32,129 bases of DNA from Dehalococcoidia bacterium (GTDB lineage: Bacteria > Chloroflexota > Dehalococcoidia > Lucifugimonadales > UBA3495), in assembly GCA_047516825.1 (NCBI GenBank), contig JAKZUA010000208.1:1-32129 (forward strand), written 5' to 3'. Shown piece after piece: positions 190 through 24,455 of this stretch; positions within the stretch are counted from its first letter, which is position 1; every line of letters begins with the position of its first letter. Position numbers and translations under genes: made by a program. Below the pieces are notes generated by a model. That model saw nothing but the letters and a program-made list of their open reading frames with translations, had not been told where the DNA came from and did no database searches.

Positions 190-1263
190 ATGAACCGCCT
201 CATCCACCAATCCATCCTCACCGCCATGCTGCTGGTGGCCGTTACCATGCTGGCAATAGCCATACCGAACAGCAATATAGTCTCGGCACACGAAGAGCCG
301 CCGGGGCTCTGCGACCGCAACCAAGTAGTCCAAGACTCTGTCCTGGCAAAACTGCCCGGCATAGACCAATGTTCCGGCGTAACTGGTGAACACCTGCGGG
401 GTCTCTCCGGGACCCTCGACCTATCAAGCCAGGGCATCACTGCCCTTTCGGCTGGGGACTTCCAGGGAATGTCCGGCATAACCGGGATAGACGCATCCGG
501 GAACCAGCTCTCCCGTGTACCCGGAAACCTGCTCCAACAACTCCGCCACCAGAGCCACACCCACTCGACCACGGAGACCAGCCGGAACGGCTACGTCATA
601 GCCGTGATCGACAAGTCCGGCTCCATGAGCGGACAGCTCAGCACCGCAAAGTCAGGCGCCCGGTGGCTTGCGGCCAACAGGCCGGACAGCATGCCGATGG
701 CGGTCATGGCCTTCTCGAACACCGCCCACACGGCGCAGGATTTCACCACCGAAACCGACAGCCTGAACAACGCCATCAACAACCTCTCTGCCAACGGCAG
801 CACCAACATAGACGACGCCCTCGCTGGAACGTACAGCCAAGCCGACAGCCGGCCGGACACATCGTTGCCCGTCGCCATCATCGTGTTCAGCGACGGCGGG
901 TTCACGCTGTCCGGCAGCCTTCACGACACCATGTCCACCAACTCCGTCAACGGCGTCAAGGTCAGCACCATCTCGACCTCCGGCCACAATGCCAACATGC
1001 AAAACCTGGCCGCCCGCGGAGGCGGGGTGTACAACACCCAGCCCAGCTCCTCGCAAAGCGGCTCATACTTCCCCATCAGGACAACCAGCGAGACCACCAC
1101 CACGACAAACAGCCACGAGCCATCCATCACCTCGCTTGACCTGTCAGGCAACTCCCTCTCATCATTACCCAGCGGGACCTTCGCCCAACTGCCAACCCTG
1201 ACCAGCATCAACCTCAGGGACAACTCCCTGACCTCCGTCCCGGCAGGGGTCGTTGCCCGATGA
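190..1263 (+). CDS. Secreted leucine-rich-repeat / von Willebrand factor A domain protein; probably the 5' piece of an interrupted surface-protein gene
   Basis: AGGAGAG RBS lies just upstream of ATG 190. Signal peptide MNRLIHQSILTAMLLVAVTMLAIAIP. LRR motifs: IDASGNQLSRVP, LDLSGNSLSSLPSGTF, INLRDNSLTSVP. vWA MIDAS DxSxS in VIAVIDKSGSMSG. The frame enters IS-derived sequence at 1239-1244 and stops 7 codons later. Confidence 0.75.
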   Translation: MNRLIHQSILTAMLLVAVTMLAIAIPNSNIVSAHEEPPGLCDRNQVVQDSVLAKLPGIDQCSGVTGEHLRGLSGTLDLSSQGITALSAGDFQGMSGITGIDASGNQLSRVPGNLLQQLRHQSHTHSTTETSRNGYVIAVIDKSGSMSGQLSTAKSGARWLAANRPDSMPMAVMAFSNTAHTAQDFTTETDSLNNAINNLSANGSTNIDDALAGTYSQADSRPDTSLPVAIIVFSDGGFTLSGSLHDTMSTNSVNGVKVSTISTSGHNANMQNLAARGGGVYNTQPSSSQSGSYFPIRTTSETTTTTNSHEPSITSLDLSGNSLSSLPSGTFAQLPTLTSINLRDNSLTSVPAGVVAR

Positions 1264-2221
1264 GCCAACCTGCAGTAGGGAGGGGTTTGCCTCTACGGCC
1301 AACCCGGTAAACCCGCACTCGAGTGAACTCCTTGGTCAGATTGCCCTTGCTCCCTTCCCGCCAGGTAATAGCTTGCCAGGCATCTTGGAGCAGTTCTTCC
1401 AGGAGAGCGTTGGCCTCTCGACTGGGTATCCGGTCCTCCAGACGGCGGGCCCGTCTGGGTCTCCCCTGGCCCTGGTACGGCGGGGCTGGTTGTTCTCCGG
1501 AGTCCTCTTCCACATCCTGGGCCAGGCGGAAGCGAGTAGAGGAGGCTACGCCGACCAGATAGGGGAGTCCTCGAGTCTCCAGGCCATCCAGGAACCGGGG
1601 TTGGTCCCCATAACCGGCATCGGCCAGCACTGCCTCGGTGGGCACTGCCGCAGCTATACCCGCATCGATAAGCTCCAGGGCTATCTTCCCCTTGGTCTGA
1701 AAGGAAGTGCCCGCAGGCACCTTTGCCGCGCTAAGCCGTACCTGGTCCTGGGTCCAACCTTCCGGCAGGTAGAGGCGGGCCGTGATCGGCCAATCAAAGC
1801 TCCCATCCACATAGTGGGATGTCACCAGCACCTGACAGTTGTCTACCCGTCCCAGGGTTCCCGAGTACTGCCTCGCCACACCCACCGAGTGGGTCCCTTT
1901 CTTGGCAAATCCGGTGTCATCAATGATCTGCAGCCCCCGGCCCAGGCTAGCCTGGGCCACCATGTATTGCACCCGGAGCTGGTCCATATCCCTGGAGTCC
2001 CACTCGGTGTTGGTAAGGAATTCCTGCAGTCGCTGGCCGTTGGTCCCGGCTACCCCTCGGCCCAGGTCCGAGGCTGTCTTACGAGGAATATCCGCCAGGA
2101 GACCGGCGGTGTAACGCTCCATCGCATGCCGGCTTTGCCCTCGCGATACCAGGGATGCATACGGCTGAAGGAAGGCCGCCAAATCTGCCGGCGGACTGGG
2201 TCCCACTTTAATGACCACCAC
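1214..2221 (-). pseudogene. IS701-family DDE transposase, N-terminal fragment (~328 aa of ~444)
   Basis: Family-typical sequence with the first two acidic motifs: QIIDDTGFAKKGTHSVGVARQYSG and AVLADAGYGDQPRFL. It leaves transposase sequence after WLIGQRPLPG (nt 1238-1267). The last 7 codons (RRSGSCP) are read from the antisense of the LRR gene. Confidence 0.8.
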
Positions 2222-2321
2222 CCCACCTCACCACTATCTAGTAGATACGGTTGCAATCTACCAAAACCTCTGCCAAATCGCCTTGCTACACCACAACCAA
2301 TCGCTAATAAAGTAGTATTAG
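1239..2321 (-). mobile_element. IS701-family insertion sequence, right-hand part (transposase N-terminal ~3/4 plus terminal inverted repeat IRR)
   Basis: Contains the transposase fragment 1214-2221. The 17-bp end TAATAAAGTAGTATTAG (2305-2321) is the 16/17 inverted match of CTAATACTACTTTGTTA at 23995-24011. The inner breakpoint lies in CCCGGC at 1239-1244. Confidence 0.75.
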
Positions 2322-2372
2322 CAAGGCCAAGGTGAGAAAAACCGCGTGACATGAGGGCAATTATTCTAGATA

Positions 2373-3383
2373 ATGCCACCTACCCCCCGCGCTACAGGCA
2401 CGCAGCAGATGCCGGGAATAGGAGGGCAACCGCAGCTGATGGTGAAGCCAGATCTACACTTTGGCGCCGGGTTGGCCTTGGGCGCCAGCGAGACCGCTTT
2501 CCAGGCCCGCTGGATGGAGGAGCTAGGTTACGAATACTTGTCGGCGGGCGAGCATTTCATGCGGGGTAATCCCCCGGGGCCTACCCACGCCGTTCTGCCG
2601 TTGCTGGGGGTAGCGGCCGGCGCCACCGAGCGGATTCGGCTGCTTTCTTCCATAGTCCTGACGCCCTTCTACCATCCTTTAATGCTGGCCAAGTTCGCCT
2701 CGACGCTGGACGTTGCATCCGGGGGACGGCTCACCCTGGGTGTGGGAGTAGGCGGCGAGTTTCCGGTGGAGTTTGAAGCCGCTGGGTTGAACGTGCGACA
2801 ACGGGGGAGCCGCACCAATGAGTGCCTGGAAGTGGTCCGGCGACTTTGGACCCAGGACCGGGTGAGCTTTAAGGGCAGACATTTCCAGCTGGAGGATGTG
2901 GCTTTGAATCCTCCGCCGGCCCAGCAGCCCCATCCTCCCATCTGGGTAGCAGGCCGACGAGATGCCGCCATGCGCCGGGCGGCGCGCTACGGCGATGGCT
3001 GGCTACCCTATTTCTACAGCCCGCAGCGGTACCGGGACAGCGTGGAGAAAATCACAGTAATGGTTGCCGAGGAAGGGCGGGATATTTCTGGATTCCAATG
3101 GGGCTTCTTCCCCTATATCTCCATCTACCCGACGGTAGAGGAGGCTGCCAGCGTGGCCGCCGAGGCCTTGGGTGGCCGGTACCTCTACGGAGGAGACTTC
3201 CTGGAAATCGTTCGCAACTACTGCCTGCTGGGGCCGGTGGAGAGCTGCATTGCTCGTCTCCAAGAGTTCATCGACGCCGGGGCTCGCCACATCGTCTTCA
3301 ACATCTCATGCCCCAGAGAGGATCGGGCCCGCCATCTGGAAACCATCGCTAAAGAGATCATCCCCCATTTTCGGGATGAATAA
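2373..3383 (+). CDS. Luciferase-like monooxygenase (LLM) family oxidoreductase, probably F420-dependent
   Basis: LLM-family sequence: GATERIRLLSSIVLTPFYHPLMLAKFASTLDVASGGRLTLGVGVGG and PPIWVAGRRDAAMRRAARYGDGWLPY. The longest ORF starts at 2373. ATG 2439, preceded by GGAGGG (2421-2426), is the more likely start. Confidence 0.8.
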   Translation: MPPTPRATGTQQMPGIGGQPQLMVKPDLHFGAGLALGASETAFQARWMEELGYEYLSAGEHFMRGNPPGPTHAVLPLLGVAAGATERIRLLSSIVLTPFYHPLMLAKFASTLDVASGGRLTLGVGVGGEFPVEFEAAGLNVRQRGSRTNECLEVVRRLWTQDRVSFKGRHFQLEDVALNPPPAQQPHPPIWVAGRRDAAMRRAARYGDGWLPYFYSPQRYRDSVEKITVMVAEEGRDISGFQWGFFPYISIYPTVEEAASVAAEALGGRYLYGGDFLEIVRNYCLLGPVESCIARLQEFIDAGARHIVFNISCPREDRARHLETIAKEIIPHFRDE

Positions 3384-3440
3384 GGCCAGGAACTTGGTCT
3401 GGGTGGCCCGGTTCTCAGAGGGTGAGTGAGAAGTCTGGTT

Positions 3441-23503: not shown

Positions 23504-23517
23504 CAACCAGGCGCTAG

Positions 23518-23991
23518 GTGTCGGCGACGAGGCAAGTAACCATCTATACCGACGGAGCCTGTCTGGGCAATCCTGGACCCGGCGGGTACGGCGCGGTGCT
23601 GCTCTACGGCTCCCAGCGTAAGGAGCTGTCGGGTGGCTTTAAGCTGACCACTAACAACCGCATGGAGATAACAGCGGCCCTGGCCGCTTTGGAAGCCTTG
23701 CGGGAGCCCTGCCGGGTGACCCTCTATAGCGACTCCCAATATCTGGTAAATGCCATGTCCAAGGGTTGGGCTCAGTGCTGGCAGGCCAACGGCTGGAAGC
23801 GAAACAAGCGGGAGGACGCGGTGAATCCGGACCTCTGGGAAAGGATGTTGGATTTGTGCCGGCGGCACACCGTCGAATTCCGCTGGGTGCGGGGCCACTC
23901 GGGAGCTAAAGAGAACGAGCGGTGCGATCGGCTGGCGGGGGCGGCCGCCCGAAACTCCGGCTTGCCCGACGACCCTGGATACAAACACTAA
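23518..23991 (+). CDS. rnhA: Ribonuclease HI
   Basis: [36 protein letters not shown] and WVRGHSG...NERCDRLA (the DEDD catalytic set). Confidence 0.9.
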
Positions 23992-23994
23992 TCC

Positions 23995-24429
23995 CTAATA
24001 CTACTTTGTTATGGGACATTCAAGGACCGTCTCTCGTTCGGATGGCGGCTTCGATGACCTGGATGAAGAACTCTTCATGGATGGACCTCCTTAAGGCAGC
24101 TAAACTTAGGCGACCCTTTGGGGGGGAAACCCGCCACCGAGGTGGCCGATGGAAACTGCCTGGGGCCATCGGTGGAGTTGGTCTGGGGCGCCAGGCAATG
24201 GTTGCGGCGAATGCTGAGGAAGGAATGGGCCATCATGACCAGAGCCACATGCCGGTGCAACCCAGTCCAGAACCTGCCCTCATAATCGTCCAGCCCCAGT
24301 TCTCCTTTGGCATCCTGGTAGAACCTCTCGATGACCCACCGGTTGTGGGCCAGGACCACCTGGTCCTGGAGGCTCCGGGAGTCCAGGCCCCAGGCGAAGC
24401 AGTATTTGGACTCTCCTTGCTGCCCCGGC
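23995..24429 (-). mobile_element. IS701-family insertion sequence, left-hand part (IRL plus transposase C-terminal ~1/4)
   Basis: IRL CTAATACTACTTTGTTA (23995-24011) begins 3 nt after the rnhA stop. Contains the transposase C-terminal fragment. The inner breakpoint lies in CCCGGC at 24424-24429. Confidence 0.75.
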
Positions 24430-24455
24430 GGACACAGACCTGGCCGCCGGCACAA
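24075..24455 (-). pseudogene. IS701-family DDE transposase, C-terminal fragment (~116 aa)
   Basis: GESKYCFAWGL...[45 protein letters not shown] is the family-typical region holding the catalytic E. The first ~9 codons of the tracked ORF are antisense to the surface-protein gene. Confidence 0.8.

Follow-up and report, generated by a model that had tools for sequence, protein, structure and literature searches.

A split IS701-family element, a surface-protein island and a core-gene block in a Dehalococcoidia contig

The integration of non-homologous DNA through microhomology is known from double illegitimate recombination (DIR) in Acinetobacter baylyi, and MMEJ and FoSTeS/MMBIR template switching are further routes that depend on microhomology. 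Homologous recombination between repeated IS copies is another source of rearrangement, which produces inversions, translocations, tandem amplifications and excised circles. Among the systems with published accounts, a short-patch form of DIR (SPDIR) has been described in A. baylyi (bioRxiv 10.1101/2023.11.22.568220), composite transposons are exemplified by ISApl1-mcr-1-ISApl1 (PMC5821093), and the IS701 family is characterized by a YACT end motif (PMC2266710).

In the window (the whole stretch of 32,129 nucleotides that was analysed), the two halves of an IS701-family element lie on either side of a block of core genes. These halves are the flanks of a single IS copy into which a surface-protein island of 23 kb had been inserted earlier, and they were linked to the block afterwards via IS homology, whether in the cell or in the assembler; the split IS around core genes is thus a case of ordinary IS-driven genome shuffling. 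The full reading that we prefer, the probability of which we judge to be evenly balanced, is that the re-linking took place in the cell.

The interrupted element

The two halves of the element are as follows.

1245 to 2317, minus strand: IS N-terminal half, with the left IS end and the first ~328 residues of the transposase (ORF fragment at 1214-2221)
23999 to 24429, minus strand: IS C-terminal half, with the right IS end and the ~116 C-terminal residues of the transposase (ORF fragment at 24075-24455)

A first-pass annotation of this DNA had read the minus-strand ORF at 1214-2221 (335 aa) as the N-terminal piece of a transposase and the minus-strand ORF at 24075-24455 (126 aa) as its missing C-terminal piece, and had rebuilt the element by joining 23995-24429 to 1245-2321. 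Both proposals hold. The two segments are complementary pieces of a single IS701-family element, their join gives 1512 bp with a 443-aa ORF, and this ORF matches the NCBIfam IS701 model NF033540 from end to end (model positions 1-363 of 363, with 363 bits against a cut-off of 150 bits) and also matches Pfam DDE_5. The rebuilt transposase aligns without a gap over the join to intact transposases of 429-447 aa, and the residues at the join, WLIGQRPLPGQQGESKYCFAWG, are identical in P0001, a transposase 95% identical to it. When the join was checked against intact copies of the element, both halves mapped on one of them (L001) with an overlap of exactly 6 bp, so that no IS sequence has been lost or added, and the rebuilt IS is colinear with intact copies base by base. 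The 17-bp inverted repeats proposed for the element do have 16/17 identity, but their outermost 4 bases are target-site bases (TTAG at 2318-2321 and CTAA at 23995-23998), and the IS proper is 1504 bp long (TACTAC...GTAGTA).

In itself the element is not unusual, and this copy is merely interrupted. Its DDE transposase shows a full-length match to the IS701 equivalog model, as expected of the IS701 family (ISRso17-like), and the length of 1504-1512 bp, the 4-bp target duplication and the termini, which fit YACT, agree with that family as well (PMC2266710), as does its presence in multiple copies; its target is (C/T)TA(G/A). The JGI name for homologues of the transposase is “SRSO17 transposase”. 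The 90%-identity cluster of the closest intact homologue has 443 member sequences, and several IS copies per strain were seen among the fetched loci. Further truncated copies end elsewhere in the IS, for example P0055 (285 aa).

The core-gene block and its own IS copies

The block and the target sites at its edges are as follows.

2322 to 23994: 21.7-kb core-gene block, LLM oxidoreductase ... fabF, recJ, lgt, ispE, rsmA, galU, lepA ... rnhA
13549 to 13812: SRP RNA of the block, which also has two tRNAs (tRNA-Leu and tRNA-Lys)
2318 to 2321: TTAG, target tetramer of the left-of-block IS copy, on both sides of that copy in L007-L012
23995 to 23998: CTAA, target tetramer of the right-of-block IS copy, on both sides of that copy in L004/L005

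The genes that had been named for the block are confirmed by the SRP RNA, the two tRNAs and the Pfam domains of the block genes in co-linear contigs (Bac_luciferase, ketoacyl synthase, RecJ, LGT, GHMP kinase, RrnaAD, NTP_transferase, LepA and RNase H). The block is co-linear with related contigs that bear an intact IS at its ends, to which it is 99.8-99.95% identical. The flanking of the block by two IS copies, which had been predicted for relatives, was found, with the copies co-oriented, wherever a contig spans the end in question: six contigs (L007-L012) have an intact IS on the block's left side and two (L004 and L005) have one on its right side, and L009 and L005 are located on the same 4.69-Mb contig, ctg125610, so that both block ends are seen on one contig. 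The 4-bp target duplications are TTAG/TTAG for the left copy, CTAA/CTAA for the right copy and CTAG/CTAG for a third, island-bearing copy described below. The block-flanking IS copies are independent insertions, each with its own duplication, and the earlier claim that the outer IS ends in the window derive from two IS copies is correct, with TTAG being the duplication of the left copy and CTAA that of the right copy.

Insofar as the block lies in relatives between two co-oriented copies of one IS, the arrangement resembles a composite transposon of the Tn10/Tn5 type. It differs in that each IS copy has a duplication of its own and in that the cargo consists of ordinary core genes in their native location; since the outer tetramers do not match (TTAG to the left of the left copy, CTAA to the right of the right copy), the IS-block-IS unit has never transposed as a whole. 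Although strains of this population are 99.7-99.9% identical, numerous IS insertions and deletions set them apart, which shows that IS-driven change proceeds quickly here.

The surface-protein island and its junctions

Outside the two IS halves, the window contains the ends of a surface-protein island.

190 to 1247, plus strand: X, 5' portion (some 352 codons) of a truncated VWA + LRR surface-protein gene; the island's right-hand end
1239 to 1247: X/IS junction, with the hexamer CCCGGC at 1239-1244 inside the 9-bp microhomology CCCGGCAGG
24422 to 24429: IS/Y junction, with the hexamer CCCGGC at 24424-24429 inside the 8-bp microhomology GCCCCGGC
24422 to 26803, plus strand: Y, 3' portion of a large, truncated gene for a surface protein, with an N-terminal fn3/PPC region in its homologues; the island's left-hand end
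26804 to 32129: island continuation, contiguous with Y in L017/L025-L028
26920 to 27459, minus strand: island ORF of 179 aa
28041 to 31031: island fn3/PPC protein of 996 aa

X carries Pfam VWA_2/VWA and LRR_8 domains, and its homologues (79-89% identical, 720-1444 aa) go on beyond the junction with more LRRs (...NSLTSVPAGLPAGLTALDLSDNS...); DNA homology of X to them stops at about 1242-1247. The homologues of Y (60-70% identical) read ...LNTFNAPADTELAAGTTFF... across the junction and are longer by 190-1000 residues at the N-terminus; in those annotated by Pfam, this region has fn3 and/or PPC domains. As had been reported, CCCGGC is present at both breakpoints, and the reciprocal join from 1244 to 24430 is, as a matter of arithmetic, in frame, with a product of 1142 aa. 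The further claim that X and Y form a single surface gene fails, however: X is of the VWA-LRR type and Y of the fn3/PPC type, they are separate truncated genes, and they are separate in relatives, which had been named beforehand as evidence against a single gene. No protein spanning both X and Y is present in the database. The in-frame X-Y “fusion” is a coincidence, because at the hexamer both genes encode Pro-Ala with equal codon phase.

A 1.31-Mb contig from a Dehalococcoidia strain with 99.8% identity shows X and Y as opposite ends of a 24.6-kb surface-protein island that splits one IS copy, the ends of which face outward in the normal orientation. The order in ENA ERZ25074053 ctg470971_54x (an island region built from two loci with a 1349-base identical overlap) is Q-IRR-C/Y...24,640 bp...X/N-IRL-P, with CCCGGC at each joint and CTAG as the outer tetramer on either side, and the island there runs 13.8 kb more past the window end, up to X. 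The flanking loci Q (AhpC and Trm112 genes) and P (NHL, GMC-oxidoreductase and thiolase genes) are unrelated to each other, and the island genes encode surface proteins (fn3/PPC, cadherin and VWA-LRR). Both hybrid junctions are base-identical in other long contigs, where their outer flanks are different, and contigs from two other samples have the interrupted-IS arrangement without the block between the junctions. The C/Y junction with the Q flank occurs also in L017/L025, L026, L027 and L028 and in one further similar place, so that each of the five contigs spanning the junction on the Y side has the same non-block flank; L028 retains the X/N junction as well, despite an internal deletion of the island.

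The first-pass annotation had explained the window by a circle consisting of the IS and the 21.7-kb block, which would have been excised between flanking IS copies and integrated into one X-Y gene by a single reciprocal crossover at the 6-bp microhomology. This fits the window considered alone, with its reciprocal halves, in-frame X-Y join and outer flanks from two IS copies, and the IS-block-IS arrangement does exist in relatives, but X and Y belong to different genes, and the same junctions occur in the two other samples with the block absent between them, the block ending there with an intact IS. In addition, the microhomology exceeds the hexamer only in the pairings of native X with the IS (9 bp) and native Y with the IS (8 bp), extensions which would not be predicted by a crossover with an X-Y joint. 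Since the junctions recur in relatives as an island-interrupted IS without the block, it was the island that became joined to an IS in the illegitimate event, with no circle inserted into a gene, and integration of a circle is extremely unlikely.

The microhomologies themselves are found in the native sequences. The 9-bp sequence is common to native X-type genes and the intact IS, with the X-type genes L020-L022 reading ...CCGTCCCGGCAGGCCTG... and the intact IS ...TGCCCCGGCAGGGGTCG... at the junction, and the 8-bp sequence is common to the intact IS and one native Y-type gene, L029, which reads ...TTCAACGCCCCGGCGGACACAGAA... and to which DNA homology begins at 24422. X and Y are of different gene families, and each is truncated exactly at its junction. 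The claim that the junctions were not made by the transposase is sustained by their location in the middle of the IS and by the microhomology, and the probable origin of the hybrid junctions is a joining of island and IS through microhomology (9 bp and 8 bp), not movement of the block. The anatomy is that of a segment of about 22.7 kb set into the middle of the IS, with the end genes cut inside their coding sequences, Y on the left and X on the right. The segment would have been pasted into the 11-bp site GCCCCGGCAGG, the left island end being joined via the 8-bp and the right end via the 9-bp microhomology, and joining in this way at this site would leave 6 bp of the IS (CCCGGC) at both junctions. 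Such illegitimate microhomology-mediated joining, as opposed to transposition, may have proceeded by end-joining of a linear fragment or by template switching in which replication left the IS and returned to it. No donor locus with an intact Y...X arrangement was found; the segment may have been incoming DNA or a copy made within the genome. As in DIR, SPDIR, MMEJ and MMBIR, the segment has arbitrary intragenic ends with 8- and 9-bp microhomologies and a target duplication of a few bp, and lacks transposon ends; unlike in those systems, the inserted DNA is very long (about 23 kb), the stretches used at the two joints overlap within a single 11-bp site, and the event is known from sequence alone.

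The occurrence of the hexamer as a native sequence in three unrelated contexts (X-type gene, Y-type gene and IS), and at both joints, could instead point to a process specific for CCCGGC rather than to chance microhomology, such as a restriction-type cut with CCGG-type ends followed by ligation, or a site-specific recombinase. We regard this as very improbable: the hexamer is common in this GC-rich DNA (43 plus-strand copies in the window), the identity beyond it is asymmetric (with GC on one flank and AGG on the opposite one), which fits annealing and not a fixed site, the junctions have no associated recombinase or restriction gene, other truncated IS copies, such as P0055, stop at different positions, and the hairpin potential at the site is not unusual (z about 0).

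Linkage of the island to the block

The linkage seen in the window is found in none of the eight other contigs spanning a block flank (six at the left end, two at the right) and in none of the five spanning the Y-side junction, which speaks against the reading that we prefer. Alignments of the window to L002 and L017 end exactly at the IS ends, 2321 and 23995. At all its SNPs but one, the N-terminal half agrees with the IS copy that relatives have on the block's left side; the exception is position 1847, where the non-left-copy allele is flanked by left-copy alleles at 1687 and 2101-2318, so that this half is not a clean single-crossover product. The C-terminal half matches the right-hand IS copy of L004/L005 with 0 mismatches and differs from the same half in L017 at 2 positions (23998 and 24017). 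In both halves the SNPs closest to the block are alleles of the block-flanking IS copies.

The inside-out linkage is secondary and arose through IS homology, either by recombination in the cell or by a wrong assembly path. With one contiguous island, the 32.1 kb of the window and a further 13.8 kb of island add up to a closed cycle of ~45.9 kb, so that a real chromosome requires at least two more recombination events, and the island or the block must be present a second time, at least in part. The same closed cycle would be expected if the island entered the IS as described above and the linkage were an artefact, with the assembler taking the wrong exit twice at a collapsed IS, from X and the N-terminal half into the left copy and from the right copy into the C-terminal half and Y; the path would then be a cycle in the assembly graph only, absent from any cell. 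This alternative is a possible one, if somewhat doubtful. It is consistent with the presence of all window k-mers in the normal arrangement (only the linkage over repeats of 1.08 kb and 0.43 kb is new), with the absence of the linkage from every other informative contig, with the mosaic SNP pattern of the N-terminal half and with the co-occurrence of several near-identical strains in these metagenomes, which favours chimeric paths. It has to contend with the rarity of long-read mis-joins over 0.4-1.1-kb repeats, two of which would be needed in one contig, and a 32-kb contig that crosses two high-copy-IS segments suggests long reads, which normally resolve 1-kb repeats. Moreover, the repeat in the window is not the majority IS consensus but carries the specific alleles of the block-flanking copies, and the window differs from all other assemblies, which indicates an independent strain or sample.

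If the island was instead re-linked to the block in the cell, as we prefer, homologous recombination of its IS half-arms, which are 1.08 kb and 0.43 kb long, with the complete IS copies beside the block would have placed island ends on both sides of the block in the window's strain. This could have occurred by copying of the island into both block-flanking IS copies, or by unequal crossing-over that duplicated or circularised a ~46-kb unit in the order block, C-half, island and N-half, and the recombined arrangement, read from the block, would appear as an IS turned “inside-out”. As in other IS-mediated rearrangements, the breakpoints, at 2321 and 23995, coincide with the IS ends to the base and the flanks are swapped among IS copies, with the flank-nearest SNPs remaining with their flanks. 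The difference is that the recombining partners would here be both half-arms of one interrupted IS, which would give a product resembling an IS turned inside-out.

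The IS element and its insertions around the core-gene block

The transposase of the window lies in two complementary minus-strand parts on either side of the core-gene block, as the first-pass annotation had described, and the features on which the analysis depends are the following.

190-1263: X, the truncated 5' part of a VWA-LRR gene
1214-2221, minus strand: ORF for the N-terminal part of the transposase, 335 aa
1239-1244 and 24424-24429: the hexamer CCCGGC, confirmed at both places
1245-2317: N-half of an IS701-family IS
2322-23994: the 21.7-kb block, from the LLM gene to rnhA
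23999-24429: C-half of the same IS
24075-24455, minus strand: ORF for the C-terminal part of the transposase, 126 aa
24464-26803: Y, the truncated 3' part of an fn3/PPC-type gene

When 23995-24429 is joined to 1245-2321, as had been proposed, the result is a 1512-bp element with a 443-aa ORF. This ORF matches the NCBIfam IS701 equivalog NF033540 with 363.4 bits (cut-off 150 bits) over model positions 1-363 of 363, in one stretch across the join, and it matches Pfam DDE_5 with 213 bits. Intact transposases of 429-447 aa align with it with no gap at the join, and the closest of them, P0001, is 95% identical and has a 90% cluster of 443 member sequences. At the DNA level both halves map onto the intact copy at the related locus L001, where they overlap by exactly 6 bp. 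Because the halves are complementary, the profile match is full-length and the join is gap-free and colinear, the descriptive part of the earlier account is correct.

The element is a normal member of its family. IS701-family elements are 1400-1550 bp long and produce a target-site duplication of exactly 4 bp (PMC2266710); the IS proper has 1504 bp (TACTAC...GTAGTA), or 1512 bp with target bases, which falls inside this range. The terminal inverted repeats are 16/17 identical in the window, and the IS end TAGTACTACTTTG (target bases included), compared by eye with the quoted consensus, fits the family end motif ---YACT-Y--YR. The intact copies carry exact 4-bp duplications of a tetramer of the form (C/T)TA(G/A).

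Tetramers at the left / right end of each IS copy
Copy at L001: CTAG / CTAG
Copy left of the block (L007-L012): TTAG / TTAG
Copy right of the block (L004, L005): CTAA / CTAA
Island-bearing copy: CTAG / CTAG

Since the tetramers are direct and not inverted repeats, they are duplications and do not belong to the terminal repeat.

The setting of the block was determined from related contigs. The organism is a Dehalococcoidia bacterium, and its nearest reference genomes are MAG chromosomes of 4.3-4.7 Mb. Identity to the window is 99.7-99.95% for long contigs of two ENA metagenome assemblies. The expectation that the block would have IS copies on its flanks in relatives was borne out: an intact copy, on the same strand as the window halves, is present at whichever block end a contig spans. 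The left copy has a NUDIX gene region ahead of it and the right copy has mobA/xdhC-like genes after it, and both ends occur on one 4.69-Mb contig (L009 and L005). In the window, TTAG directly follows the N-half, as at the left block-flanking copy, and CTAA directly precedes the C-half, as at the right one. Each of these copies has its own matching pair, which identifies two independent insertions. A composite transposon made of IS, block and IS was considered and rejected, since the outer tetramers differ (TTAG on the left, CTAA on the right) and no duplication surrounds the whole unit; the IS-block-IS segment did not move as a composite transposon.

Several other derivatives of the element were encountered. 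Truncated copies of the same IS end at other positions (P0055, 285 aa; P0004, 396 aa), and L001 contains at 3542-6309 a second transposase apparently split by about 1.6 kb, with a DDE_5 fragment of 279 aa followed by a DDE_Tnp_1 fragment of 90 aa. A 235-aa ORF (window 23922-24629, plus strand) runs antisense over the C-half and its junction, and several public assemblies (L017, L025-L028) annotate a 191-aa gene in the matching stretch; this ORF is almost certainly a spurious gene call.

An island inside a single IS copy

The comparison with related contigs shows that the hybrid junctions, at which X meets the N-half and the C-half meets Y, bound an island that was inserted into an IS copy, and that they exist independently of the block. 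The first 2321 bases of the window match L002, on the 1.31-Mb contig ctg470971_54x, at 99.83%, and the match ends exactly at the IS end, beyond which L002 continues with NHL, GMC-oxidoreductase and thiolase genes (flank P). The window from 23995 to 32129 matches L017 and L025-L028, starting exactly at the other IS end, and upstream of the C-half these loci have AhpC and Trm112 genes (flank Q), not rnhA. L027 and L002 are pieces of one contig that overlap by 1349 identical bases, and the order on that contig is Q, IS end, C-half, Y ... X, N-half, IS end, P, with the IS ends facing outward as usual. The interrupted IS occupies two contig intervals.

157,702-158,136: first part of the interrupted IS in ctg470971
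182,777-183,859: second part of the interrupted IS in ctg470971

CCCGGC is present at both joints of this island, 24,640 bp apart, a distance that contains a secondary 1.9-kb IS inside Y, so that the island without it measures about 22.7 kb. Its contents are Y, a 179-aa ORF, fn3/PPC proteins, an IS66 copy, several cadherin-domain proteins, a DUF4349 protein and X.

It had been proposed that a circle made of the IS and the block integrated by one reciprocal crossover into a single surface gene X-Y. This model is very improbable, because junctions identical to those of the window flank the island in a single IS copy of ctg470971 with no block between them, because in each of the five contigs spanning the junction of the C-half with Y the flank is Q and not the block, and because X and Y do not adjoin in a single gene, since their homologues diverge at the junction and no protein covers both. 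The earlier interpretation was right in invoking illegitimate joining and the involvement of two IS copies, but not in what was joined or in what moved.

Exact-protein look-up of X returned only L002 and L003, and look-ups of Y, the LLM protein, the 996-aa protein and the N-fragment returned no identical record. The 30-mers of both junctions were absent from JGI metagenome contigs and that of the X/N-half junction from IMG/VR, and PLSDB plasmids and phage records held no near match to the window. A low-coverage variant (L028, ENA ERZ25074053 ctg457744_8x) has an island with an internal IS-associated deletion that keeps the end where X meets the N-half; at L028 1-1810, window position 30219 is linked through a DDE_Tnp_1_assoc IS to X position 969. 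The cadherin repeats of the island are 89-98% identical to one another, which makes it prone to internal recombination. The island genes encode eukaryote-like surface proteins of VWA-LRR, fn3/PPC and very large cadherin-repeat types (window 190-1263, 24464-26803 and 28041-31031; L002 and L017 flanks). A CTAG inside Y (window 25043-25046) is an insertion hot spot. The tetramer is uninterrupted in the window and in L017; three related contigs each have a different insertion at exactly this place, which in L026 is one of about 170 bp, in L027 a DUF772/DDE_Tnp_1_6 IS of 1.9 kb, and in L028 a stretch of about 1.3 kb that includes a DDE_5 transposase.

The truncated genes X and Y and the joints of the island

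The join of X to Y that had been called reciprocal is indeed in frame, but the two do not form one gene. When the fused 1142-aa X-Y sequence was searched against the database, its relatives fell into two separate sets, and none of them covers both parts. The relatives of X (79-89% identical, 720-1444 aa, VWA + LRR) continue over the junction as ...NSLTSVPAGLPAGLTALDLSDNS... and then for a further 370-1040 residues. Those of Y (60-70% identical) are longer by 190-1000 residues at the N terminus, with fn3 and/or PPC domains in the ones that Pfam annotates, and read ...LNTFNAPADTELAAGTTFFVFASY... across it. At the DNA level, homology of X to its relatives ends at about 1242-1247 and homology of Y to its relative L029 begins at 24422. 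Because the homologues continue differently past the junctions, X is a gene truncated at its 3' end and Y another gene, truncated at its 5' end; the join is in frame because at the hexamer both have Pro-Ala codons in the same phase.

The native genes also reveal what the IS and the insert have in common. X-type genes (L020-L022; DNA ...CCGTCCCGGCAGGCCTG...) share the 9 bp CCCGGCAGG with the IS, and the Y-type gene of L029 (DNA ...AACGCCCCGGCGGAC...) shares the 8 bp GCCCCGGC, both tracts being read from homologues that are 79-91% identical at the DNA level rather than from the donor itself. Within a single 11-bp IS site, GCCCCGGCAGG, the two tracts have the hexamer in common. The ends of the island fall at arbitrary points within the coding sequence of the truncated genes and show neither inverted repeats nor att sites, and no recombinase goes with them; gene calls in the island comprise surface proteins and secondary IS copies. 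A hairpin or quasi-palindrome hot spot at GCCCCGGCAGG was rejected, since the DNA folds no better than shuffled sequence (z = 0.05-0.09).

The island would have been joined to the IS by microhomology-mediated illegitimate recombination, either through end-joining of a fragment or through a template switch out of the IS and back, and this joining would leave a 6-bp duplication. The joints resemble double illegitimate recombination (DIR), microhomology-mediated end joining (MMEJ) or template switching, in that short identity between insert and target is present at both of them (9 bp and 8 bp). They form a clean case from nature in which microhomologies of 8-9 bp joined a segment as large as about 23 kb into an IS. 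A search for a donor with an intact Y...X arrangement found none. The closest full-length genes are 83-89% identical for the X type and 60-70% identical for the Y type, and they are not syntenic with the island; the flanks compared were those of X-type genes in L018/L019 and in three GTDB Dehalococcoidia chromosomes and of the Y-type gene in L029.

Linkage of block and island in the window

We infer that the order seen in the window (island end, N-half, block, C-half, island start) is secondary and arose through IS homology, as a classical IS-homology rearrangement. Given an island that is single-copy and contiguous, the window path closes a cycle of about 45.9 kb, so that a real chromosome would need the island in both flanking IS copies, or a 46-kb tandem duplication or circle, or a circle re-integrated elsewhere. 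Each chromosomal route to this linkage would take two or three homologous events.

The chances are about even that the linkage reflects real recombination. It might also be an assembly artefact produced by a wrong walk through the assembly graph, for which the probability is appreciable: eight other contigs span the relevant block flank and five span the Y-side junction, and the linkage is absent from all of them, but a contig of 32 kb could not run through two pieces of a high-copy IS unless it had been built from long reads, and these are seldom mis-joined at such short repeats. Inversion models were rejected because the relative orientation of the two junctions is wrong for them, and because X and Y are not one gene.

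Few SNPs in the IS halves are informative. The C-half is identical to the right-hand block-flanking copy; relative to the island-bearing copy it has two differences, at 23998 and 24017, and these are the sites closest to the block. At 1687, 2308 and 2318 the N-half agrees with the left copy; it lacks the allele private to L002 at 2101, and at 1847 it does not have the left-copy allele. The C-half is compatible with a single crossover, and in the N-half one site, 1847, is discordant. The pattern fits an exchange inside IS sequence, whether in the cell or by the path of the assembler.

A tentative and rather unlikely further reading is that the linkage is real, that the half-IS arms of the interrupted IS act as portable homology with which the 23-kb island hops between IS copies, and that here, in one strain of an IS-rich Dehalococcoidia population, a unit of about 46 kb comprising the core-gene block and the island has been duplicated in tandem or excised as a circle. 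A true linkage would document the duplication or circularisation of a unit with essential genes; one that is not real flags a chimeric contig. Nothing seen requires a new mechanism. What appeared in one window to be an exotic circle integration has, after comparison with related long contigs, the simpler origin of an ordinary IS copy interrupted by an island and then shuffled via IS homology, which calls for caution in similar cases, and the comparison makes visible the speed with which IS copies re-link loci among strains that are 99.8-99.9% identical.

The block itself is otherwise co-linear among these contigs, and it contains a second CTAG-containing insertion hot spot in the fabF-recJ gap (window 8802-8812, CCTAGG), where L008 has a 1.9-kb DUF772-type IS and L010 a 1.2-kb DDE_3 IS. 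A MITE-like repeat, about 170 bp long and bounded by terminal inverted repeats AGAGKGTGTTTWAAAA..., occurs at window 4918-5131 (minus strand), L009 6986-7160 and L005 11989-12154; the left block-flanking IS has one copy directly against its outer side, the right one has another in the corresponding place, and the third is inside the block.
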